This document shows, piece by piece, positions 45,793-57,100 of a stretch of DNA of 64,000 nt. A program made the translations under genes and the position numbers. The first letter of the stretch is position 1. Each line of letters opens with the position of its first letter. Origin of the DNA: an uncultured Candidatus Rokubacteria bacterium (GTDB lineage Bacteria; Methylomirabilota; Methylomirabilia; Rokubacteriales; CSP1-6). The stretch is from NCBI GenBank assembly GCA_963771355.1, contig CAVYTA010000006.1, forward strand, positions 1,728,001 to 1,792,000, in the 5' to 3' direction. The notes below the pieces were generated by a model. That model worked only from the letters and a program-made list of their open reading frames with translations. It was not told where the DNA came from and did no database searches.

Positions 45793-47024
45793 GGGCCCCG
45801 CTCTACTACGGCTGGGTCGTCGTCGCGGGCGCCTTCCTCGTCCTCTTCCTCGCCTACGGCACGCAGTACGCCTTCGGCGTCTTCTTCGCCGCGCTGCTCG
45901 CCGAGTTCCACTGGTCGCGCGCCAGTCTCTCGGGCGCTTTTTCGCTCTATGCCTTCGTCTACAGCGTGTTCGGACTGGTGGCGGGACGCCTCACCGATCG
46001 CTGGGGACCCCGCGCGGTGATCGGCGGGGGCGGCGTGCTCCTCGGGGCCGGGCTCGCCGGTATGAGTCGCGTGGATGCGCTCTGGCAGCCCTATGTCCTC
46101 TACGGCGGCGTGGCCGCATTGGGCATGTCCACCGCCTTCGTTCCCTGCAACGCCACCGTGGTGCGGTGGTTCGTGCGCCGCCGCGGGCTCGCGGTGGGGC
46201 TGGCCACCGCGGGCGGCAGTCTCGGCACCTTTGTCTTGCCCCCGGTGGCCCACTGGCTGGTGAGCGGGCTCGGCTGGAGAGGCGCCTACCTCGCCTTCGG
46301 GGTGGCGGTCTTCCTCGTGCTCAATGGGGTCGCCTTCCTGATGCGCCGCGATCCGGAATCCCTCGGCCTTTCTCCCGATGGCGCGGCCCGACCTCTCACC
46401 GCCGAGGCGGAAGTCGCCGGCTGGCCGGTGCGGGCGGCGATGCGGACCCGCGCCTTCTGGATGCTCTTCTGCATCTTCGGTCTCACCTGGATGTCCGTCT
46501 TCGTGCCCCTCGTGCACCTCGTGCCCCTGGCGCGCGATCTCGGCGTGGACTCGCTCCGCGCGGCGACCCTGGTCAGCGCGCTGGGCATCGCCGCGGTGGC
46601 GGGGCGGATCGCCATGGGGTGGGTGTCGGACCGCATCGGCCGGCGTCCCGTGCTCGCCGTCGGGCTCGCGCTCCAGTCGGTGTCCTTCGTGGGGCTCGCG
46701 CAGGCGACCGGACTGCCCGCGCTGTACGCGGCCGCGCTGACCTTCGGCTTCTCCTATGGAACGATCTCGACGATCTTCCCCGCCATGGTGGCGGACTTCT
46801 TCGGCCGCGCCAACGCGGGCAGCCTGGTCGGGCTCCTGTTCGGGATCGCCGCGCCCTCGGCGGCCGTCGGCCCGGTGGCGGCGGGCTGGATCTACGATCG
46901 CCACGGCGGCTACGAGCTCGCCTGGTGGCTCAGCGCGGGCATCAACCTGGCGGCGTTGGCCCTGCTCGCGTTCGCGCGCCCGCCCGGGCGGGCGCCGATT
47001 GACCGGTCCGCGCGCGCCCGCTAG
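45789..47024 (+). CDS. MFS transporter (OFA/MCT-like)
   Basis: YYGWVVV, GRLTDRWGPR, WFVRRRGLAVG and GWVSDRIGRR motifs; 12 TM. Confidence 0.92.
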   Translation: MRAPLYYGWVVVAGAFLVLFLAYGTQYAFGVFFAALLAEFHWSRASLSGAFSLYAFVYSVFGLVAGRLTDRWGPRAVIGGGGVLLGAGLAGMSRVDALWQPYVLYGGVAALGMSTAFVPCNATVVRWFVRRRGLAVGLATAGGSLGTFVLPPVAHWLVSGLGWRGAYLAFGVAVFLVLNGVAFLMRRDPESLGLSPDGAARPLTAEAEVAGWPVRAAMRTRAFWMLFCIFGLTWMSVFVPLVHLVPLARDLGVDSLRAATLVSALGIAAVAGRIAMGWVSDRIGRRPVLAVGLALQSVSFVGLAQATGLPALYAAALTFGFSYGTISTIFPAMVADFFGRANAGSLVGLLFGIAAPSAAVGPVAAGWIYDRHGGYELAWWLSAGINLAALALLAFARPPGRAPIDRSARAR

Positions 47025-47089
47025 ACTGGGCCGGCCGCCGGCCGCCACGAACCGAAGCCGGCGCCAACGAACTTCTCCAGGGAGGCGCG

Positions 47090-48304
47090 ATGGCCGGGCT
47101 CAAGGACAAGTACTGCATCGTCGGCGTCGGTGAAACCGAGTACAGCCGCGAATCCCGCCGGAGCACGCGCGCGATGGCGGTGGAAGCGGTCCGGAAGGCC
47201 ATGGACGACGCCGGGCTCGCCTCCGCCCAGGTGGACGGGATGATGTCCTACCAGAGCGGCGACTCCACTCCCGCCCCCTGGGTCTCCGGCGACCTCGGCC
47301 TGCGGCTGAACTTCTACATGGACGTATTCGGCGGCGGCTCGTCCACCGAGGCGCTCGTCGGACTCGCCATCGGCGCCATCGAGGCGGGGATGTGCAACAC
47401 GGTGGCGCTGTTTCGCTCGATGAACGGCTATTCCGACTTCCGCATCGGAGGCACCGGGGCGCGCGCGGCCCAGCCGGTGCGCGGCCTGGACCTGGCGCAG
47501 GTGCCCTTCGGCATGCGGAGCGCGGGCCAGAACTTCGCGCCCACCTTCATGCGGCACATGTACGAGTACGGCACCACCTCGGAGCAGGTGGCGGCCGTGC
47601 GCGTGGCCCACAGCCGGCACGCCTCCCAGAACCCGAAGGCCTTCCTGAAGGACCGGGTGACGGTGGCGGACGTGGTGGGCTCGCGCTGGATCGTGAAGCC
47701 GCTGCACCTCCTCGACTGCTGCCTGGAGACGGACAACGCCACCGCCCTCATCGTCACCTCCACCGAGCGCGCGCGCGACCTCAAGCGGAAGCCCGCCCAC
47801 ATCATGGGCGTCGCCGGCCGCGTCAACAAGCCGCGCCTCGACTTCCACTGGGCGCACGGGCCGATCAGCCGCGTGGCCGGCTACTACGCCAAGGAGGTCG
47901 TGTTCGGCCAGGCCGGCATCGGGCCCGAGGACGTGGACGTCACCGGCTCCTACGACGCCTTCACCTTCACCACCATGCTCCAGCTCGAGGAGTACGGCTT
48001 CTGCAAGAAGGGCGAGGGCGGGGCCTACGTCTCGAGCGGAATCATCGAGCTGGGCGGCAAGCGGCCCAATAACACCTCCGGCGGGCATCTCTGCGAGGGT
48101 TACACCCACGGCATGAGCATGGTCATCGAGAACGTGCGCCAGCTGCGGGGCACCGTGGACGACTATTGCCCGGGAGCCGCCGACGGCAAGCACTCGTATG
48201 ACTACGCGCCGGGCAAGTGCCGGCAGGTCAAGGACGCGCGCATCACCATGAACCTCGGCTGGGCGATGCCCCCGACCGGCTCGGCCCTGATCCTCCACAC
48301 CTGA
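47090..48304 (+). CDS. SCP2/Ltp2-type thiolase-like protein
   Basis: IVGVGET, PLHLLDCCLETD, YDAFT and NTSGGHLCEGYTHG motifs. Confidence 0.88.
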   Translation: MAGLKDKYCIVGVGETEYSRESRRSTRAMAVEAVRKAMDDAGLASAQVDGMMSYQSGDSTPAPWVSGDLGLRLNFYMDVFGGGSSTEALVGLAIGAIEAGMCNTVALFRSMNGYSDFRIGGTGARAAQPVRGLDLAQVPFGMRSAGQNFAPTFMRHMYEYGTTSEQVAAVRVAHSRHASQNPKAFLKDRVTVADVVGSRWIVKPLHLLDCCLETDNATALIVTSTERARDLKRKPAHIMGVAGRVNKPRLDFHWAHGPISRVAGYYAKEVVFGQAGIGPEDVDVTGSYDAFTFTTMLQLEEYGFCKKGEGGAYVSSGIIELGGKRPNNTSGGHLCEGYTHGMSMVIENVRQLRGTVDDYCPGAADGKHSYDYAPGKCRQVKDARITMNLGWAMPPTGSALILHT

Positions 48305-48320
48305 GAGCGGAGATCGCCCC

Positions 48321-48827
48321 ATGGCCAACGTGGAATACCGCGGTATGAACCTGGTGATCCCCGAGAACGACTCGGAGTGGCGCGAGCACTTCAAGCTGGC
48401 CCGGCAGCGGCGGAAGCTTGTGCTCCGCAGGTGCACGAAGTGCGGGCTCATGCGCTATCCCCCCAGCCACGGCTGTCCCTGGTGCCCGTCGCTCGAGTGG
48501 AGCTGGCAGGACGTGTCAGGGGGCGGCCACATCTACTCCTACGAGGTGGTGCATCACGCCATCCAGCCCGGCTTCAAGGAGTGGACGCCCTACACGGTGG
48601 CCCTGGTGGAGCTCGACGAGCAGCGGGGCGCGCCCACGGCCGACGAGGCGCTCCGCATCATCGCCAATGTGGTCACGCGGGAGTTCCGGCCCGAGCCCGA
48701 GGCCAATGTCGCCATCGGCAAGCGGGTGCGTGTGGTCTTCCAGGACATCGGGGAGGACTGGGCCCTGCCCCAGGTGAGCCTCACCGACGAGCCGCCGGTG
48801 GGCCGGGTCTGGCGCTTCCCCGGGTAG
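48321..48827 (+). CDS. DUF35 zinc-ribbon/OB-fold protein
   Basis: CTKC..YPP..CPWC, IYSY and PYTVALVELDE motifs; adjacent to the thiolase-like gene. Confidence 0.88.
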   Translation: MANVEYRGMNLVIPENDSEWREHFKLARQRRKLVLRRCTKCGLMRYPPSHGCPWCPSLEWSWQDVSGGGHIYSYEVVHHAIQPGFKEWTPYTVALVELDEQRGAPTADEALRIIANVVTREFRPEPEANVAIGKRVRVVFQDIGEDWALPQVSLTDEPPVGRVWRFPG

Positions 48828-48870
48828 CGGACCTGACCACGCCGGCGGGGGCGGACGCTCTGGTGCCGTC

Positions 48871-49395
48871 CTACCCCCGCGTCAGCCGGGCCACGATGGC
48901 CTCGAACGCCTTGTCCGCCAGGTCGCGCACCTCGTCCCGGGTGAGCGGCTGGATGGGGTGCTGCACCATCACCGTCTCGTAGTCGTCCGCGCCCAGCGCC
49001 GACGCCTGCGCCCGTGCCGCCCGCTGGAACTCCGTCGAGATGACGGTGGCGGTGGGGATCCCGTGGTCCTCGAAAAATACGCCGTCGTGCACACTGCACG
49101 TTGTGCAGGACCCTCAGTCGGCGAGGCCCTCGATGAGCACCTCCGTCTCCTCGAGGATCTTCTTGCGCAGGTCCTCCGGCGCCGGGCGCGCGAAGGTGGG
49201 CTTCTTGCGGCGATGGATCGCCTTGGGCCGGTGCCGCTCGCGCAGCAACTCCTCCACGCGGTCCAGCAGGTGGTCGCCCTTGGCCTTGGAGATGTCGAGC
49301 AGGGTGATCACCTTCCCGTCGAGGGAGTCGGGACGCGGGGCGCGGTGCCGGGGCACCGCCACGGAGTCGGTGGGATCCAGGAATTCGTCGCTCAT
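48871..49395 (-). CDS. UGSC-family selenoprotein (in-frame TGA = Sec at 49114-49116)
   Basis: ORFs 49114..49395 and 48871..49092 are in the same frame; the junction reads GAC TGA GGG TCC TGC ACA ACG TGC AGT GTG CAC GAC = D-U-G-S-C-T-T-C-S-V-H-D; 174 aa in total. Confidence 0.88.
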
Positions 49396-49403
49396 GTCGC
49401 CTC

Positions 49404-50459
49404 CTAGTCGGCCTCGATCTTGCGATGGACCATCCGCGACATCTTGGGAAACGTCCAGCCCGCCACCACCGCCGAGAAGCGGCCGGCGGTGCCGCCCGCC
49501 ACCACGAACTTGAGGTTGGCCGGCTCACGGAACTTGGCGATCAGCGTCTCCTCGGTGGCGGGGGCGGCGAACTTCGCCAGCACGTGGGCGGGCAGCCCCT
49601 CGCCGCCGTCCATGCCCGGGATGAGCGCGCGCACCGGCTTGCGCAGGCGCTCCCACAGGAAGGCGCGCATGCGGCCCCGGTCCCACCCGTCGGCGGCGAG
49701 CAGGCGCGCGTGCTCGGGCGAGAGCACGATCAGGGTATCGCCGTGGTGAGTGGACTTGTGATGGGAGATCACCGCCAGCGAGTGCGCGAGGGTGACGAGG
49801 AGGTCCTCGCCCGTGCGGCTCAGGTGGTCGTAGACGGTCTGCGGGGCCGCGCCGGCGAAGGCGCTGATCACGCTCTCCCCGGGCGCGAAGCCCGCCTCCA
49901 TCGAGAGCGGCGACCAGGGGCTCTCCTCCTCGTTCTCCGCGATGCAGTAAGTGAAGTAGCCTGGATGCGCGAGGGTGGACATGGTGATGCCGCCGGCGGC
50001 GGCCCCGCCCACGTTGCGTATGATGAGGCGCAGCGCCCGCCCGATGGTGGCGTTGGCGCGATGGCCGGGTCCGAACACCCCCGCTCCCGCGTTGAAGTCG
50101 AGCCGCTTGCGCACCGGGCCGTTCACGATGAAGAGCGGCGCCGCGCTGTTGGTGGTGGCGGCCACGCCGTGGAGGTCGAAGGCGTCGTCGCACATCGCTT
50201 CCACCCCGGCGATCACCACCGGCAGGTATTCGGGCCGGCAGCCCGCCATCACCGCGTTGACCGCGATCTTCTCCACGGTGGCGTGGCCGAAGTTGGGCGG
50301 GACGAGGGCGACCAGGCCATCGGCGGGGCGACCCGCGGCGGCCACCGCCGCCGCCACCCGCTCGCGGGTGGGCGGCACCACCGGCAGCCCGTCGGTCACC
50401 CCCCGCGCGTCGAGCGCCTCGAAGGGGTCATCGGCGGGGTCCACCTCGCGACCGCTCAC
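49404..50459 (-). CDS. Conserved uncharacterised protein ('TDGLPVVPPT' family), partner of the UGSC protein
   Basis: TDGLPVVPPT, ATVEKIAVNAVMAGC.PEY, RANATIGRALRL, AENEEESPW and VVAGG motifs. Confidence 0.85.
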   Translation of the reverse strand: MSGREVDPADDPFEALDARGVTDGLPVVPPTRERVAAAVAAAGRPADGLVALVPPNFGHATVEKIAVNAVMAGCRPEYLPVVIAGVEAMCDDAFDLHGVAATTNSAAPLFIVNGPVRKRLDFNAGAGVFGPGHRANATIGRALRLIIRNVGGAAAGGITMSTLAHPGYFTYCIAENEEESPWSPLSMEAGFAPGESVISAFAGAAPQTVYDHLSRTGEDLLVTLAHSLAVISHHKSTHHGDTLIVLSPEHARLLAADGWDRGRMRAFLWERLRKPVRALIPGMDGGEGLPAHVLAKFAAPATEETLIAKFREPANLKFVVAGGTAGRFSAVVAGWTFPKMSRMVHRKIEAD

Positions 50460-51106
50460 GACCGACAGGCGCGAAAATTCGCGTAGTCACCGGCAGCGCG
50501 ACTCTTGGTATCGTCGGCGTCGGTGAGGACGGCGATGCCCGCGAGCTTCGGGGTCTCGGCCTCCTTGAAGCGCGCGCGATACTCCTCGGCCACGTTGACA
50601 CGCTCCTCCACCCACTGACCCTTCGCGCCATTCCCGCTCCGGAGCACGCGCGCCTGCGTGAGCCCCGCGCTCGAGGTCAGCGTCGTTCCCACCGGCACCA
50701 CCGCGCTCCAGATGTACTTGAGCGACTTCAGGGACACGGAGGAGTGGGGCCACACCGCGTACACGGACAGCGCGCTGTCGTTGGTCTTGCTGTTGCGCTC
50801 GTCCGATCCCTTGGGATGCTCCCCCAGCCGCCAGGCCCAGGCGAGGATGGGGTAGGCGGCGTGGTCCCAGGGCTGCTCGCGGGCGGCCTGGATGCCGATG
50901 CCCTCGGAGACCGCCCTCAAGAATCGGCGCCCCCCTTCCTCGCGCACCGTGTAGACGCCGCGCCCGGAGTCCTTCCGCAGCTTCCAGTCGACCGGGAACT
51001 CGCCGACCTTGGAGCGCGAGAAGTCCTCGAGCACGATACAGTCGGCCGCCCGCGCGGAGGGAGCGGCGAGGAGGACGATGAGGCCGACGAGGACGAGGTA
51101 TCGCAT
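50456..51106 (-). CDS. DUF3047-like exported protein
   Basis: Signal peptide; YPILAWAW, SLKYIWS, WVEERVNV..Y and IAVLTDADDT motifs. Confidence 0.8.
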   Translation of the reverse strand: MRYLVLVGLIVLLAAPSARAADCIVLEDFSRSKVGEFPVDWKLRKDSGRGVYTVREEGGRRFLRAVSEGIGIQAAREQPWDHAAYPILAWAWRLGEHPKGSDERNSKTNDSALSVYAVWPHSSVSLKSLKYIWSAVVPVGTTLTSSAGLTQARVLRSGNGAKGQWVEERVNVAEEYRARFKEAETPKLAGIAVLTDADDTKSRAAGDYANFRACRS

Positions 51107-51111
51107 GTCCG

Positions 51112-52521
51112 CTACCGCCCTCGGCGCCACCACTGGTGGACGAGCTGGTCCACCACCTGGACGAGCTGCGCCACCGTGCGGCACTCCTTGACGATGTCGC
51201 ACGAGGGCGAGTAGAGCGGCATCACGCTGTCGCCGATGCCCCAGCCCCACTGTCCCTCGGGGTTGAGCCAGATGATGCCCTTCACGCGCTCGCGGATCTG
51301 GCGGATGGCCCAGGCCTGGGGATCGTTGTAGTTGTTGCGCGCATCCCCGAGGACCAGCACGGTCGTCTTGCGGTCCAGCGTGTCCAGCTCCGTGCGGACG
51401 AAGCGGTTGAAGGCATAGCCGAAGTCGGAGCGGCAGTGATAGTCCACCGGCGAGCCCTTGAGCGCCCACTCGATGGCCCGGTCCACCGGGTAGGTCTTGA
51501 AGGCCTGAGTGACCTCGGCGATCTCCGACACGAACACGTAGGAGCGCATCCGGGAGAAGCAGTCCTGGAGGCTCCACACCAGCTGGAGCATGAAGCGCGA
51601 CGCGTTGCGCACCGAATCGGACACGTCGCAGAGGGTGACGAGCTTGGGCTTCTCCCGGTGCCGGCGCCGGTAGCGTACCTCCATGGGGATGCCGCCATAC
51701 TGCAGGCTCTTCCGGATGGTCCGCCGCGAGTCGAGCCGCCCCTTCTCCTCCTGGCGCTGGCGGAGGGCGAGGGCGTCCTTGATCTTGCGCGCGAGCCGCG
51801 CCACCACCGCCTTCATCTGCGCCACCTCGTCCGGCGACAGCGCGAAGAGGGGCTTGTCGGTGAGGACCTCGCGGGTGAGCTTCTCGCCTTCACGGTAGGC
51901 CCGCCGCTCCAGCTCGCGCTCCACGTGCTGGCGGATCATGCGCCGGAAGGCTTCCAGGCGCAGGTCGAGATAGTTGCGGATGCGGGCGAGCTGGCCGGGA
52001 TCGAGCCCCTGCGCTTCCAGCATCTGCATGATGCGGGAGAGATCGCGCTCGATGGCCTCCCAGTCGAACTTGTCGTAGATGCGCCGGGAGAAGTAGCCGA
52101 TCTGGAGGAAGTACATGAGCCGCTCGAGCCCGGCCCCCTGCCCCTGGCCGCGGATCGCCATCTCCATCTCCGCGCCCTCGCCCTGGAGCATGAGCTCGGT
52201 CATCTCGTCCAGCTCGAGCCCGTCCTGGGCCATGAGCTTGTCGAGCATCTCGCGCATCTTCGGGTCCTCGGGCCCCAGGGCCTTCTTGAGCCCGGCCCCC
52301 AGCGCCTCGAGGTCGAGGAAGTAGAGGTCGAAGATGCGGTCGAAGGTCGGCAGGTCGCGGGCCTCCTTCACCAGGGTCGCGGCCAGCGCGGACTTGAAGG
52401 TCTCCCGCGTCTCGACGCCGATCTCGGTGGAGGCGGAGAGCGCGTCCATGGCCTCGCTGGTGGAGATGCGCAGCTCCGCCCGGCGCAGATCGCTGATGAA
52501 CTCCAGGATGCGTTGGTCCAT
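51112..52521 (-). CDS. VWA domain protein, CoxE-like
   Basis: MIDAS LCDVSDSV, LD.RRTIRKSL, VLGDARNN and WLNPE motifs. Confidence 0.9.
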   Translation of the reverse strand: MDQRILEFISDLRRAELRISTSEAMDALSASTEIGVETRETFKSALAATLVKEARDLPTFDRIFDLYFLDLEALGAGLKKALGPEDPKMREMLDKLMAQDGLELDEMTELMLQGEGAEMEMAIRGQGQGAGLERLMYFLQIGYFSRRIYDKFDWEAIERDLSRIMQMLEAQGLDPGQLARIRNYLDLRLEAFRRMIRQHVERELERRAYREGEKLTREVLTDKPLFALSPDEVAQMKAVVARLARKIKDALALRQRQEEKGRLDSRRTIRKSLQYGGIPMEVRYRRRHREKPKLVTLCDVSDSVRNASRFMLQLVWSLQDCFSRMRSYVFVSEIAEVTQAFKTYPVDRAIEWALKGSPVDYHCRSDFGYAFNRFVRTELDTLDRKTTVLVLGDARNNYNDPQAWAIRQIRERVKGIIWLNPEGQWGWGIGDSVMPLYSPSCDIVKECRTVAQLVQVVDQLVHQWWRRGR

Positions 52522-52574
52522 CTAGTAGCCTATGCGCGATTTATCATGGTTTGGCGGTTTGGCCTCTTCGCCCC

Positions 52575-52725
52575 GGGGGCTCATCGGGGCGGGGTCTCGA
52601 TGGGGAGCACCCGCGCGCGGGGGCTCATCGGGGCGTCGTTTCCACCTTGAACACTCGCGCGTGGGGGCTCATCGGGGCGTGGTCTCGATGGGAACTGTCG
52701 CGCCGCGCGGCGGGGGCTCATCGGG
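52575..52725. repeat. Four-copy direct repeat array, GGGGGCTCATCGGG(GCG), period 44/44/49 bp
   Basis: Copies start at 52575, 52619, 52663 and 52712; the intervening segments are partly similar to one another. Confidence 0.85.
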
Positions 52726-53272
52726 AGAAGGTCACCCAGGAGGACTTGAACACGTCCTCGTTGCCGTCGCGGCTGATGGGGTGGAGCCGGCCGTCCTCCA
52801 GTCGCAGGAGCCCGTGGAAGGACCCGCGGCACACGAAGTGGCTCATGCGGAACTTCCAGCCGAGCGAGCCGAGGGGGACCTCCTCGTCCAGCTCCACCGC
52901 CCGGGTCACGTCGGGGACGTCGCCGACCAGGTGCAGGACCCGCACCGGCCCCTCCGCGCAGCGCAGGCCGAGCACCACTTTGTAGGAGAGGCCCTGGCGG
53001 AACGTCTCCACCGTCATCTCGCCCGGGTGGAGGAGATGCGGCACCGCGTCCGGCATGGTGGCCCGGAAGAAGTCGCGCGGCGTCGGGTGGACGTAGTAGA
53101 AGTGCCAGCGGCCGGCGGCGGAGATCCAGAGCTTGGTGTACTCGCCCAGCGCGCCCGAGACGCAGCGGCCGCCCTCGATGAACACCGGCCCGGACGGCCC
53201 GAGCTCGGGGAGCCGGATGCGGGGCGCCGGAAACCAGAGCTCCCGGAACTCGGAAAGACCCGCCCACTCCAT
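52718..53272 (-). CDS. Hypothetical protein
   Basis: Lies between the MoxR and VWA genes on the same strand, 9 bp after the MoxR stop; globular-looking composition. Confidence 0.65.
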   Translation of the reverse strand: MEWAGLSEFRELWFPAPRIRLPELGPSGPVFIEGGRCVSGALGEYTKLWISAAGRWHFYYVHPTPRDFFRATMPDAVPHLLHPGEMTVETFRQGLSYKVVLGLRCAEGPVRVLHLVGDVPDVTRAVELDEEVPLGSLGWKFRMSHFVCRGSFHGLLRLEDGRLHPISRDGNEDVFKSSWVTFSR

Positions 53273-53281
53273 CGTCGCCGC

Positions 53282-54202
53282 CTACTTGACCGGCGCCTCG
53301 GCGAGCACCTTGTCCAGCGCGCCCCGCACCCGCTCGAGGTCCTTCTCGTGCTTGACGAGCATGGTCAGGGTGGACTCCACCAGCTCCCGGTCCAGCGAGT
53401 CCGCGTTCAAGATCACCAGCGAGCGCGCCCAGTCGAGGCTCTCCGACACGGACGGCGCCTTCCGGAGCTCCAGTCCGCGGATCTTGTTCACCACCCCGAC
53501 CACCGCCTGGGCCAGGCGCTCCGGAAGCTCCGGCACCTTGAGCCGGATGATGGCGAGCTCCTCGTCCGGGGGCGGAAAGTCGATGAAGAGATGGAGGCAC
53601 CGGCGCTTGAGGCCGTCCGACAGCTCGCGCGCGTTGTTCGAGGTGAGGACGACCAGCGGGATGTTGGTGGCCTTGATGGTGCCGAGCTCGGGCACGGAGA
53701 CCTGAAAATCCGAGAGGACCTCGAGCAAGAACGCCTCGAATTCCGGCTCGGCCTTGTCGATCTCGTCGACCAGCAGCACCACCGGATCCGTCGACTCGAT
53801 GGCCTGGAGCAGCGGCCGCGGAGACAGGAAGCGGTGGGAGAAGAAGGCGTCGTCCTGGCCGGAGATCTTGGCCACCGCGTCGGGCAGCGAGGGCGCGTCG
53901 GCGATCAGCTCGCCGATGCGATCGCGGAGGAGCTGGGTATACAGGAGCTGCTTGGCGTACTTCCACTCGTAGAGCGCCTTGCCCTCGTCGAGCCCCTCGT
54001 AACACTGGAGACGAATGAGCCGCCGGCCCGCGATGTCGGCCAGCGTCTTGGCCAGCTCCGTCTTCCCGACGCCCGCGGGCCCCTCGACCAGCACCGGCCG
54101 GCCCATCTTCGCCGCGAGGTACACGACGGTGCAGATGCGCCGGTTGGCGATGTAGCGGGCGTTCTTGAAGCTCTGCTGGACGTCCTCCACCGATCGGAAC
54201 AT
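53282..54202 (-). CDS. MoxR-family AAA+ ATPase (CoxD-like)
   Basis: EGPAGVGKTE, RLQCYEGLDE, LLVDEIDK, LTSN and LKRRC motifs; RBS AAGGAG before ATG 54202. Confidence 0.93.
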   Translation of the reverse strand: MFRSVEDVQQSFKNARYIANRRICTVVYLAAKMGRPVLVEGPAGVGKTELAKTLADIAGRRLIRLQCYEGLDEGKALYEWKYAKQLLYTQLLRDRIGELIADAPSLPDAVAKISGQDDAFFSHRFLSPRPLLQAIESTDPVVLLVDEIDKAEPEFEAFLLEVLSDFQVSVPELGTIKATNIPLVVLTSNNARELSDGLKRRCLHLFIDFPPPDEELAIIRLKVPELPERLAQAVVGVVNKIRGLELRKAPSVSESLDWARSLVILNADSLDRELVESTLTMLVKHEKDLERVRGALDKVLAEAPVK

Positions 54203-54287
54203 GGCGGCTCCTTGGAATGAATTGGCGTTCATCCTAGCATCACGGCGCGGGTTTGGCGAGCGGCCCGCGCGGTGGGACACTGAAGCC

Positions 54288-55397
54288 GTGACCGACGAGC
54301 GCGCGCGCGGCTATCATCGCCTCCAGCTCGGCCTCTCCGTGCTGGCCTTCGCGCTGGGCGTGGGCTATCTTTCCGTCCTGCTCGTCACCGGCAGCAGCGC
54401 CCGGCTGGCCGCGCGGATCGCGGAGTGGACCGCGCGGCCCTGGCTCGCGCTCGCCGCCATGACACTCGTGGTCGGCGCGGGCTGGCGCCTGCTCACGCTC
54501 CCCCTGGCCTGGCTGGGCGGGTTCTGGTTGCCGCGCCGCTTCGGCCTCCTCCACCAGCCCTTCGCGCGCTGGGCCTGGGACGCGGTGAAGGCGGGCGCGA
54601 TCGGCGGCGTTCTGGCCCTGGCCGGCATCGAGGTGGTCTACGCGCTGCTACGCTGGACCCCGTGGTGGTGGCTGGCCGCCGCGGCGGCATTCCTCGTCGC
54701 CGCCATTCTTCTCACCCTGGTCGCGCCGGTCTGGCTGGTCCCGCTCTTCTATCGACTGGAGCCGCTGGCGGACGGCGAGCTGCGCGAGCGCCTGCTCCGG
54801 CTCGGTCGGCGAACCGGCGTGCCCGTGCTGGGAGTCTGGGTGGGCGATCAATCGCGAAAGAGCCGCACCGCGAATGCCGCGGTGACCGGGCTCGGTCGCA
54901 CCCGCCGCGTCATCCTGTTCGACACGCTCGTGCGCGAGTTCCCCGCGGACGAGATCGAGGCGGTGCTGGCCCACGAGCTGGCCCATCATGCCCACGCCGA
55001 CATCTGGCGCGGGCTCGCCGTTCAGGGCGCGGTCACGCTCGCGACCTTCTGGCTGGCTGATCGGCTGCTCGCGGCCGGTGCGGCGAGCCTCGGCCTCGCG
55101 GGACCGGCAGACCTCGCCGCCCTTCCGCTACTTCTTCTCATCGGGCTGGGCGCCGGCATGGTGGCGCTGCCACTGACCAATGGGTGGTCTCGCCATGTGG
55201 AGCGTCAGGCCGACGACTTTGCGGTACGAGCGCTGGGATCCGCCGGCGCCTTCGTCGCGGCCATGGAGCGCCTGGCGCGGCTCAACCTGGCCGAACGCGA
55301 GCCCCATCGACTCAAGGAGATCCTCCTCTACTCCCACCCGGCCATCGGCCGGCGGGTGGCCCGGGCCCAGGCGCTCGCGGCGGGGTCGCCCGGCTGA
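54288..55397 (+). CDS. M48 family metallopeptidase (Ste24-like)
   Basis: ANAAVTGLG.TRRVILFDTL, HELAH, ERQAD and YSHP motifs. Confidence 0.9.
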   Translation: MTDERARGYHRLQLGLSVLAFALGVGYLSVLLVTGSSARLAARIAEWTARPWLALAAMTLVVGAGWRLLTLPLAWLGGFWLPRRFGLLHQPFARWAWDAVKAGAIGGVLALAGIEVVYALLRWTPWWWLAAAAAFLVAAILLTLVAPVWLVPLFYRLEPLADGELRERLLRLGRRTGVPVLGVWVGDQSRKSRTANAAVTGLGRTRRVILFDTLVREFPADEIEAVLAHELAHHAHADIWRGLAVQGAVTLATFWLADRLLAAGAASLGLAGPADLAALPLLLLIGLGAGMVALPLTNGWSRHVERQADDFAVRALGSAGAFVAAMERLARLNLAEREPHRLKEILLYSHPAIGRRVARAQALAAGSPG

Positions 55398-55464
55398 CAC
55401 TGTACCCTCCAGCTTGTTTCTCAGCCGACGTAGGCGCCCCTGTTCCACTTCTAAACATTCATTG

Positions 55465-55507
55465 TTTCAATGAGTTGAGGGCCGGGAGCCCTGGCACCCC
55501 AATTGCT
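55465..55507 (+). promoter_or_regulatory. Sigma-54 promoter with upstream IHF-like site
   Basis: TGGCAC-CCCAA-TTGCT at 55492-55507 is an exact consensus match; TTTCAATGAGTTG at 55465-55477 is one mismatch from WATCARNNNNTTR. Confidence 0.75.
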
Positions 55508-55559
55508 GCTCAGTAGGCTCGGAGACCACGTGGCCACCCACGGAACGACAGCACTTGAG

Positions 55560-56843
55560 ATGAGTTCCAAGCCCGCCGGCCCCCAGAGTGCGCTGTTGCG
55601 ACACCTTCGGGTGATCCGCATCGTCTCCGAGGCCGTGAGCCGGTCGCTGGACCTGGAAGAGGTCCTCGATCGCTCGCTCGACGCCCTCACCCAGGTCACC
55701 GGACACGAGATCTCGAGCCTGCACCTGGTTTCCCCGGACGGGGAGCGGCTGCTCCTGCGGGGCGACCGCGGCCTGTCGCCGCGCCTCCGCGAAGTCAACC
55801 TCGTCCTCCCGATGGGCGTGGGGCTGATCGGCAGCGTGGCCCAGTCCGGCCAGCCGCGCCGCGTGGACGACGTCGCCCGGGCCGGCGACCTCCTGCACGC
55901 GGCGCGCGAGGCCGTGATCGCCGACGGCATCCGCGCCTTCGTCTGCGTGCCCATCCGCGCCCGCCAGCGCCTGCTGGGCACGCTCGCGCTGGGGCGGCAG
56001 ACGGGCCATCGCTTCTCCGACGCGGAGGTCTCGCTGCTGGAGTGCGTGTCCGATCAGATCGGGCTGGCCCTTGACAATGCGCGGCTGTACTCCGAGACGC
56101 GGCATCAGCTCCAGGAGCACGAGAAGGTGCGGGCGGCCGCGGTGCGCGCGGAGCGGATGTCCGCCATCGACGGCCTCGCCGCGGGCGTGGCCCACGAGAT
56201 CAACAACCCGCTCACCATCATCCTGGGCCAGATCCACGTGATGCTGCAGGGCGAACCGGAGGAGGAGCTGGAGACCCAGCTCCGCGTGATCGATGGCGCC
56301 GCCAAGCGCGCGGCCAAGATCGTGAAGGACCTGCGCTCCTTCGCCGAGCCCTCGCCCGCCCAGCGCGCCCCCGTCTCGATTCCGGCGCTCATCCGGCAGG
56401 TGCTGGACGCCAACGAGTCGCGCCTCCGCGCCGACCACGTGGAGTGGGAGACCGTGCTCGAGCAGGTGCCCGCCATCTGGGCCGACGGCCCACAGCTCAC
56501 CCAGGTGCTCCAGAGCCTGGTGGACAATGCCCGCTTCGCGATGGCGTCGTCCCACGACGGCGGCCGGCTCACCCTCCGGGTCATGCCGGTGCCCGCCGGC
56601 GTCCGCATCGAGGTCGCCGACGACGGGCCCGGCATCCTGCCGAACCACCTGCCCCGCATCTTCAACCCCTTCTTCACGACCAAGGGGCCGGATCAGGGGC
56701 GCGGGCTCGGGCTCGCCGTCGCGCACGGAGTCATCAAGGAGCATGGCGGCCGGCTCTGGGCCGAGAACGGCTCCTCCGGCGGCGCTCTCCTCGTCGTCGA
56801 GCTGCCGGTGAGCCTCCGCCGCACCGAACGCGCCTCCGCCTGA
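55560..56843 (+). CDS. Cytoplasmic GAF-domain histidine kinase
   Basis: GAF (CVPIRAR..LLGTL..ALDNARLY), AHEINNPL, DDGPGI, FFTTK and GRGLGL. Confidence 0.92.
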   Translation: MSSKPAGPQSALLRHLRVIRIVSEAVSRSLDLEEVLDRSLDALTQVTGHEISSLHLVSPDGERLLLRGDRGLSPRLREVNLVLPMGVGLIGSVAQSGQPRRVDDVARAGDLLHAAREAVIADGIRAFVCVPIRARQRLLGTLALGRQTGHRFSDAEVSLLECVSDQIGLALDNARLYSETRHQLQEHEKVRAAAVRAERMSAIDGLAAGVAHEINNPLTIILGQIHVMLQGEPEEELETQLRVIDGAAKRAAKIVKDLRSFAEPSPAQRAPVSIPALIRQVLDANESRLRADHVEWETVLEQVPAIWADGPQLTQVLQSLVDNARFAMASSHDGGRLTLRVMPVPAGVRIEVADDGPGILPNHLPRIFNPFFTTKGPDQGRGLGLAVAHGVIKEHGGRLWAENGSSGGALLVVELPVSLRRTERASA

Positions 56844-56890
56844 TCGGCGCCGCTCCCGGCGCCGGAATCGCTGTGGTAGGCTGAAGCGCC

Positions 56891-57100
56891 ATGCGGCGCT
56901 TTGTTTCTCCCGCGATCCTCTGCTTCGCGCTCACCCTCGTCGCCGCCTGCGCGCCCATGGGCGGCTCCGCCCCCCGGAGCAGCGGCGGCGCCTCGGTGCG
57001 GTGTCTGAACCCGGGCGACTCCGGCGGTACCGGCGCCGCCGGCTCGTCCGAGTCGCCGGATCGGCCCATCTTCTTCCTCTTCTGCGCCCAGTCTCCCTGA
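56891..57100 (+). CDS. Small putative lipoprotein
   Basis: Lipobox LVAAC, Gly/Ser-rich linker, and a C-terminal RPIFFLFC; two further Cys after the lipobox. Confidence 0.6.
   Translation: MRRFVSPAILCFALTLVAACAPMGGSAPRSSGGASVRCLNPGDSGGTGAAGSSESPDRPIFFLFCAQSP

Follow-up and report, generated by a model that had tools for sequence, protein, structure and literature searches.

The six consecutive minus-strand genes at positions 48871 to 54202 of the window, i.e., the whole 64,000-nucleotide stretch of contig CAVYTA010000006.1 that was analysed here (positions 1,728,001 to 1,792,000 of the forward strand; assembly GCA_963771355.1, an uncultured Candidatus Rokubacteria bacterium), probably make up two independent modules. 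One is a chaperone block built on a MoxR-type ATPase and a VWA protein; the other would be a thioredoxin-recycled, pyruvoyl-independent reductase made of a UGSC-family selenoprotein and a 351-amino-acid (351-aa) protein. The original prediction had joined all six genes and a repeat into one system, in which the MoxR/VWA pair might mature a redox enzyme formed by the last two proteins. The features, in the direction of reading of the genes, are as follows (Sec, selenocysteine; SECIS, selenocysteine insertion sequence; MIDAS, metal-ion-dependent adhesion site).

53282..54202, minus strand: MoxR-type AAA+ ATPase, 306 aa (Pfam/NCBIfam AAA)
52718..53272, minus strand: 184-aa hypothetical protein, an optional insert in the MoxR/VWA interval (no Pfam or NCBIfam match at E ≤ 0.01)
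52561..52705, minus strand: tandem copies of a dispersed hairpin element, variable in copy number and not a conserved part
51112..52521, minus strand: VWA_CoxE protein with MIDAS motif DVSDS, 469 aa (Pfam/NCBIfam), partner of the MoxR ATPase
50456..51106, minus strand: DUF3047 protein, 216 aa (Pfam), with a signal-peptide-like N-terminus
49404..50459, minus strand: 351-aa 'DGLPVVPPT' protein, 'Unknown_1', a likely substrate-binding subunit
48871..49395, minus strand: UGSC-family selenoprotein, 174 aa via readthrough of UGA94, motif U94-G-S-C97-T-T-C100
49114..49116, minus strand: in-frame UGA, read as Sec from orthologues, Cys homologues and the Sec machinery of the genome
49084..49113, minus strand: likely SECIS of 10 codons in which the synonymous sites are frozen; a hairpin is possible

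From the MoxR gene to the selenoprotein gene, the intergenic distances are 9, 196, 5, −4 (a GTGA overlap) and 8 bp, in exact agreement with the original prediction. Its remark that no CO dehydrogenase lies nearby also stands, since none occurs among the open reading frames (ORFs) of positions 40000-64000, the only part of the window scanned for this enzyme. The six genes are flanked on the opposite strand by M48 peptidase, ChsH2 and thiolase genes.

The separation of the two modules rests on how their genes are distributed in other genomes. A search with the VWA protein gave 78 loci, nearly all from Rokubacteria or Methylomirabilota (top identity 96-98%). Among the 46 loci that span VWA to the opposite-strand ChsH2, the selenoprotein/351-aa pair is present in 30, neither gene is found in 14, and only UGSC is found in 2. 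Downstream of VWA in the 42 loci with 7 kb of sequence, DUF3047 occurs in 34, UGSC in 28 and the 351-aa gene in 27, together with the opposite-strand ChsH2 in 32 and thiolase in 29; the M48 peptidase is kept upstream in 39 of 51. A single six-gene system is not supported, and these unrelated opposite-strand flanks accompany VWA no less often than the pair. In 40 related genomes (thresholds E ≤ 1e-170 and E ≤ 1e-130), a VWA orthologue is found in 33 and a 351-aa orthologue in 23; both are found in 20, VWA only in 13, of which 8 are at least 94% complete, and the 351-aa protein only in 3. The intervals themselves, of which 24 hand-picked ones were analysed by crude gene calling, take variable cargo downstream of VWA: an opposite-strand ORF separates VWA/DUF3047 from the pair in six relatives, and a 269-aa gene follows UGSC in two loci and DUF3047 directly in two others.

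The two blocks are also apart in more distant loci. Among 88 loci of the 351-aa family, drawn from plasmids and metagenomes, the 74 whose family member is below 60% identity (38 of them with at least 4 kb upstream) contain no MoxR, VWA or DUF3047 gene. Within the genome of the window, the five other copies of the pair have none of these three within 5 kb, bar one DUF3047 gene on the opposite strand; this second DUF3047 lies behind an ORF resembling an insertion sequence and was taken as chance. The insertion-sequence-like ORF between this divergent UGSC/partner copy and DUF3047 appears to be interrupted (L148:6773-7381; G000:C5 near 166000). Conversely, four plasmid relatives of VWA (of 31 records) have no UGSC or partner gene, one of these records being unannotated, and the surroundings of the examined ones hold mdo, acyl-CoA genes or housekeeping genes. 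Fusions agree with this picture, as no AAA or VWA domain is among the Pfam hits of 31 longer and 57 long members of the 351-aa family. The absence of the pair from 14 of 46 loci and of the chaperone from all 74 distant loci and the five other copies argues against the proposal that the pair is the client of MoxR/VWA, and the six parts do not travel together across lineages.

Several points weigh on the other side. Within Rokubacteria, the pair follows VWA in about two thirds of the loci, so the neighbourhood comparison that the original prediction had itself suggested speaks only in part against it. We best read the linkage in these loci as inherited gene order. The genomes sampled are kin and some loci were fetched twice, and because of this kinship and overlap the linkage counts are descriptive only. 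Moreover, since some 351-aa paralogue occurs in all 41 genomes searched, chaperoning could still take place in trans.

The MoxR/VWA block resembles CoxD/CoxE and MadB/MadC in combining a MoxR protein with AAA+ motifs (Walker A GPAGVGKT, Walker B VLLVDE and TSN..RR, placing it in a CoxD/MadB-like group) and an adjacent VWA_CoxE protein with a MIDAS. The MoxR gene lies at most 5 kb upstream of VWA in 50 of 51 loci. The best NCBIfam models stay below their cut-offs, i.e., MadB at 356.5 (475) for MoxR and MadC at 158.6 (600) for VWA, and mycobacterial VWA proteins, one of them beside mdo, are 40-43% identical to the C-terminal part of the window's VWA. A literature search on MadB/MadC as a MoxR/VWA pair found nothing relevant. 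CoxD and CoxE mature the CO dehydrogenase encoded beside them, according to the accessible part of the source (PMC3471820). In Afipia (Oligotropha) carboxidovorans (CoxD/CoxE) and with the actinobacterial MadB/MadC-type pairs, the cox or mdo client is adjacent, whereas none adjoins the window's pair, and the nearest Ald_Xan_dh_C match is about 80 kb away. The client is probably encoded elsewhere. The genome has 17 matches above cut-off to the large subunit of molybdo-hydroxylases, which are possible clients in trans; a separate CoxD/CoxE-like pair stands beside one of these molybdo-hydroxylases (L151), and the window's MoxR is 47% identical to the CoxD-like gene of the genome's own molybdo-hydroxylase cluster.

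DUF3047 travels with this block rather than with the redox pair: it is present in 38 of the 46 VWA-to-ChsH2 loci and in none of the 74 distant loci of the 351-aa family, and the genome has four copies. Its N-terminus is signal-peptide-like by sequence, and those of the UGSC/351-aa pair are not. The 184-aa gene occurs in 33 of 67 loci with MoxR and VWA; where present in Rokubacteria, its product is 73-97% conserved, with no family, paralogue or usable atlas match. That DUF3047, the 184-aa gene and the variable repeat make up one system with the pair, as had been suggested, is not supported.

The selenoprotein belongs to the catalogued family UGSC, which the original prediction had not recognised, with 165.3 bits against NF041046 (cut-off 125) and 174.4 bits against PF24696 (cut-off 25). 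Every sequence test run bears out the earlier call of its in-frame UGA as a selenocysteine codon. The codon is kept as TGA in 39 of 39 orthologues, and Cys replaces Sec in five plasmid homologues. Of the 10 codons after the TGA, 8 are invariant at synonymous sites, compared with 7 of 97 in the rest of the gene, and the genome encodes tRNA-Sec, selA, selB and selD. The hairpin that can form after the UGA is no more stable than those of shuffled sequences (z −0.06). The third cysteine of the motif, C100, is limited to the orthologue group of the window and a few other proteins.

In a search of 61 genomes, UGSC was found to be expanded in the host's family, with 2 to 12 matches per genome and one TGA in every match listed, and it was not found in any of nine genomes from one family of the same class. 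The accessible part of a survey of the Global Ocean Sampling data describes UGSC as one of the five largest selenoprotein families there (255 sequences) and as the commonest in several non-marine samples (PMC2398784), and a 2026 review, in its accessible text, lists UGSC among the uncharacterised selenoproteins (PMC13188914). Within the accessible portions of surveys and reviews, with most subscription journals outside the search, no function is assigned to UGSC and no link to GrdB is stated; a search on selenoproteins of Rokubacteria found nothing relevant.

The 351-aa partner has no Pfam or NCBIfam match at E ≤ 0.01, and its atlas clusters are labelled only 'hypothetical'. Its motif block agrees with the domain 'Unknown_1' in Fig. 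S1A of Zhang & Gladyshev 2008, who, in the part of the paper at hand, describe this domain as fused to UGSC (PMC2398784), whereas the two are separate genes in the window. The family is large (5205 representatives at 50% clustering), and the conserved residues of the window's protein are D23, C74, T103, N136, R141, N149, C172 and E175, with C74 kept in 135 and C172 in 129 of 140 members. Searches of the PDB with the UGSC and 351-aa sequences and with both alignments returned nothing significant. An AlphaFold2 model of the 351-aa protein (predicted local distance difference test, pLDDT, 95.6; predicted template-modelling score, pTM, 0.93) has no match to a solved structure above background, the best Z values being 5.1-5.3 over 80-90 residues, which does not prove that the modelled fold is new.

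The two proteins likely form one unit with a redox role, judging from gene order and fusions. The UGSC gene adjoins, or is fused to, that of the 351-aa protein in 61 of the 88 family loci, including those of Proteobacteria, Actinobacteria and haloarchaea. Of 57 long representatives of the family, 31 include a UGSC domain, which is full length in 11, and so do 14 of the 31 longer family proteins. A redox role is suggested by links to the thioredoxin system: a redoxin domain in five and a ferredoxin-thioredoxin reductase domain in one of the 57 long representatives, thioredoxin-reductase-like fusions in 3 of the 31 longer proteins, and, in 3 of the 8 plasmid loci opened (out of 24 records with a partner gene), a trxB gene next to the pair. 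The two-subunit redox enzyme of the original prediction thus survives as a unit with a likely redox role, and the complex itself would follow by analogy. A correlation of partner and UGSC identities over 144 adjacent pairs (Spearman 0.93) was set aside, as the pairs are kin and partly duplicated.

The plasmid loci also contain TRAP/TTT/TAXI transporters (4 of 8), CoA transferases (3 of 8) and aconitase X (2 of 8), and scattered acyl-CoA enzymes lie near the pair in metagenomic loci, where 85 of 159 called ORFs were scanned. The transporters, CoA transferases and acyl-CoA enzymes are what suggests the class of substrate proposed below. One haloarchaeal and one actinobacterial locus (L155:3859-6148, L157:4527-5315) have phosphosulfolactate synthase genes close to the pair, and aconitase X with DUF126 is near fused forms in Vibrio and Sporomusa (L156:3902-5611, L158:2770-4475); both are possible leads to a substrate. 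In three loci (L077, L083 and L099), UGSC is kept downstream of DUF3047 without the partner gene. A stand-alone subgroup of the 351-aa family at 50-57% identity (L173-L186), with two copies in the genome of the window (G000:C6:2676276-2677253 and G000:C5:215717-216673), may use a UGSC protein encoded elsewhere.

The UGSC model (pLDDT 94) shows five strands in an alpha/beta sandwich, and the UGSC motif opens the helix after the third strand. The structural matches listed for it are flavodoxin-like and Rossmann-like proteins, none outstanding, with Z up to 11.3, and the redoxin profile scores at background, leaving room for unlisted families. The fold is therefore predicted to be a parallel flavodoxin-like sandwich rather than thioredoxin-like, in contrast to the accessible parts of two earlier accounts, which treat UGSC as probably thioredoxin-like (PMC2398784; PMC13188914).

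A comparison with GrdB, prompted by the GrdB motif, was made by HHalign. A GrdB-type profile aligns with UGSC over residues 74-171 (92 columns) with 94% probability, E 8.7e-8 and a score of 54.7, vs. controls of at most 25.2 for 30 shuffles, 18.8 for the reversed alignment and 18.4 for CxxC redoxins; a profile of short PrdB-like sequences gives 76% and E 2.4e-5. UGSC is likely homologous to the Sec domain of GrdB at the level of sequence profiles. The GrdB motif UxxCxxC, as given in the accessible part of the review, is common to the window's UGSC protein (PMC13188914), and both the Grd and Prd systems and the pair discussed here combine a selenoprotein subunit with a larger partner. However, GrdB has an N-terminal GRDB region of about 350 residues, which UGSC lacks, and the Grd/Prd partner is the pyruvoyl proprotein GrdE/PrdA (PF09338), to which the 351-aa partner is unrelated. 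Homology of the 351-aa protein to GrdE/PrdA was rejected (profile against 14 GrdE-like sequences, probability 0.1%), and neither GrdE/PrdA (PF09338) nor GRDB (PF07355) nor Gly_reductase has a match in the genome of the window. Among relatives in the phylum, full GrdB/GrdE-like pairs do occur, with Gly_reductase in 13 of 61 genomes, as do many short PrdB-like proteins with an in-frame TGA (L240-L269 and L274-L288 for the two kinds together); the window's genome has neither. A GrdB or PrdB chain is absent among the structural matches listed for the UGSC model, from a library in which the presence of such a structure was left unchecked.

By analogy with GrdB and PrdB, the complex, its chemistry and its class of substrate can be sketched. 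In D-proline reductase, according to the accessible part of the source, the partner holds the substrate for attack by the Sec residue of PrdB, and the enzyme is restored by an electron carrier (PMC11229817). The 351-aa subunit would likewise bind and polarise its substrate, a small organic acid or a compound derived from acyl-CoA, in a pocket formed by its conserved Asp, Asn, Thr, Arg and Glu residues; the U94 selenolate would attack this substrate and cleave a bond between carbon and a heteroatom; the adduct would be resolved by C97 into a selenenyl-sulfide; and re-reduction would fall to thioredoxin and thioredoxin reductase or to a fused redoxin domain. We tentatively propose, at somewhat less than an even chance, that UGSC and the 351-aa protein represent an undescribed pyruvoyl-independent branch of the glycine/proline-reductase selenoenzymes. 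In such a branch, a stand-alone GrdB-type Sec domain would work with a substrate-activating subunit of unsolved fold and take its electrons from thioredoxin; the pair would have multiplied in Rokubacteria, where a genome has up to 12 UGSC matches, so as to reduce different organic acids.

The following points weigh against the reading of the pair as a GrdB-like, thioredoxin-recycled reductase. With the seven motif columns masked, the GrdB match falls to a score of 28.8 (probability 17%, E 0.0015), so the homology, likely as it is, depends on the motif. The GrdB-like and PrdB-like sets comprise only 10 sequences each, taken from relatives and cut around the UGA, and none of 50 UGSC sequences matches the GRDB Pfam family (PF07355) at E ≤ 1. 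Because the partner is unrelated to GrdE/PrdA, its activation of a substrate would be without precedent. As for the unit itself, an adjacent UGSC is missing from 27 of the 88 loci, some of which are truncated, and because of these and the stand-alone subgroup the pairing is not obligate. TrxB is found in only 4 of the 74 distant loci, and the neighbours of the pair are heterogeneous and point to no single substrate.

Three other explanations were weighed. We consider it very unlikely that the six genes are one system, with MoxR/VWA as maturation factors of the 351-aa/UGSC enzyme and DUF3047 as an envelope component. The tight same-strand spacing and the GTGA overlap would suit it, as would the few promoter-like sites (only one, on the plus strand) and terminator-like sites (one on the minus strand, within the 184-aa gene). 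It would also be in line with the 30 of 46 loci with the pair downstream of VWA, which reach other families of the order, and with the precedent of CoxD/CoxE and their adjacent metalloenzyme. However, it does not explain the 14 loci without the pair, the 74 distant loci and five further genomic pairs without the chaperone, flanks as well conserved as the pair, the interrupting ORFs and the shifting 269-aa gene, or the lack of AAA/VWA fusions. RNA contigs are uninformative for co-transcription, with pieces on all six genes and both flanks and none across the operon. A role of the pair as a hydro-lyase or isomerase is distinctly unlikely. In this reading, the 351-aa protein would be distantly related to the alpha domain of class I fumarate hydratase, and Sec/Cys would coordinate a metal cluster or serve as a reversible nucleophile. 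The top Foldseek match is indeed the alpha chain of the fumarate hydratase of M. jannaschii (E 1.2e-3, TM 0.29), the Leishmania enzyme aligns over 181-199 residues across most of the model (Z 4.0-4.4, root-mean-square deviation about 5.5; Z 3.7-4.4 for fumarate hydratase overall), and aconitase X adjoins 2 of 8 plasmid loci, but these Z values are within background, the profile score against 19 fumarate hydratase alpha sequences (17.6) is below the shuffle maximum (23.6), and the links to the thioredoxin system would go unexplained.

It is also unlikely that the pair serves general thiol-redox or detoxification purposes, reducing a peroxide, sulfoxide, disulfide, persulfide or metalloid with C74 and C172 of the 351-aa protein as an electron relay, instead of acting as a catabolic carbon-heteroatom reductase. 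The UxxC motif, the near-invariance of these two cysteines and the redoxin and thioredoxin-reductase fusions are consistent with such a role, as are the sulfur-handling genes and selB that adjoin the Paracoccus locus. However, the fold predicted for UGSC is not that of thioredoxin, and its profile matches GrdB, not redoxins. Substrate-specific enzymes fit better, because the UGSC copies are many and several of them are near transporter or catabolic genes.

The repeat upstream of VWA consists of about three copies of a 44-nt unit (52574-52705, 75-77% alike) and has the top Tandem Repeats Finder score (142) of 95 rows in the window. The end of the unit (52561-52587, minus strand) reads CCGATGAG-[stem]-CGAAG, and the stem of the CCGATGAG element varies with its pairing kept (CCCC/GGGG, CGC/GCG, GGCC/GGCC). 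The CCGATGAG core occurs three times in the genome, against 0 for reversed and complemented controls, and has 19 occurrences in the 78 VWA loci (e.g., L036:9938, L040:9247 and 9932, L048:4329, L077:4244 and L093:2204). Of these 19, 15 lie just upstream of VWA or in the interval from MoxR to the 184-aa gene; part of the occurrences are at other sites and on the other strand. Relatives have from zero to three units in this spacer, or repeats of an unrelated kind, and in one of them two different spacers carry units. Because copy number and position vary among relatives, the repeat is not a conserved part; it behaves as a dispersed intergenic element. The CCGATGAG element may resemble the core of a hammerhead ribozyme apart from two changes, or else a repetitive extragenic palindromic (REP)-like element; Rfam gives no match at E ≤ 1 in 46000-57000, and a search of the literature on this class of repeat found nothing relevant.

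The UGSC family name and the Unknown_1 fusion are already in print, and the locus is probably a two-gene unit beside an independent chaperone block. The six-gene arrangement is best read as ordinary synteny, and the two-gene core is the part worth further work. The 351-aa partner, for which no close solved relative was found, is a target for structure determination. Given a GrdB-like Sec domain, thioredoxin links and natural single-chain fusions with Cys, the function of UGSC can be tested directly in E. coli. If true, a pyruvoyl-independent branch would give an abundant environmental selenoprotein family a testable function.

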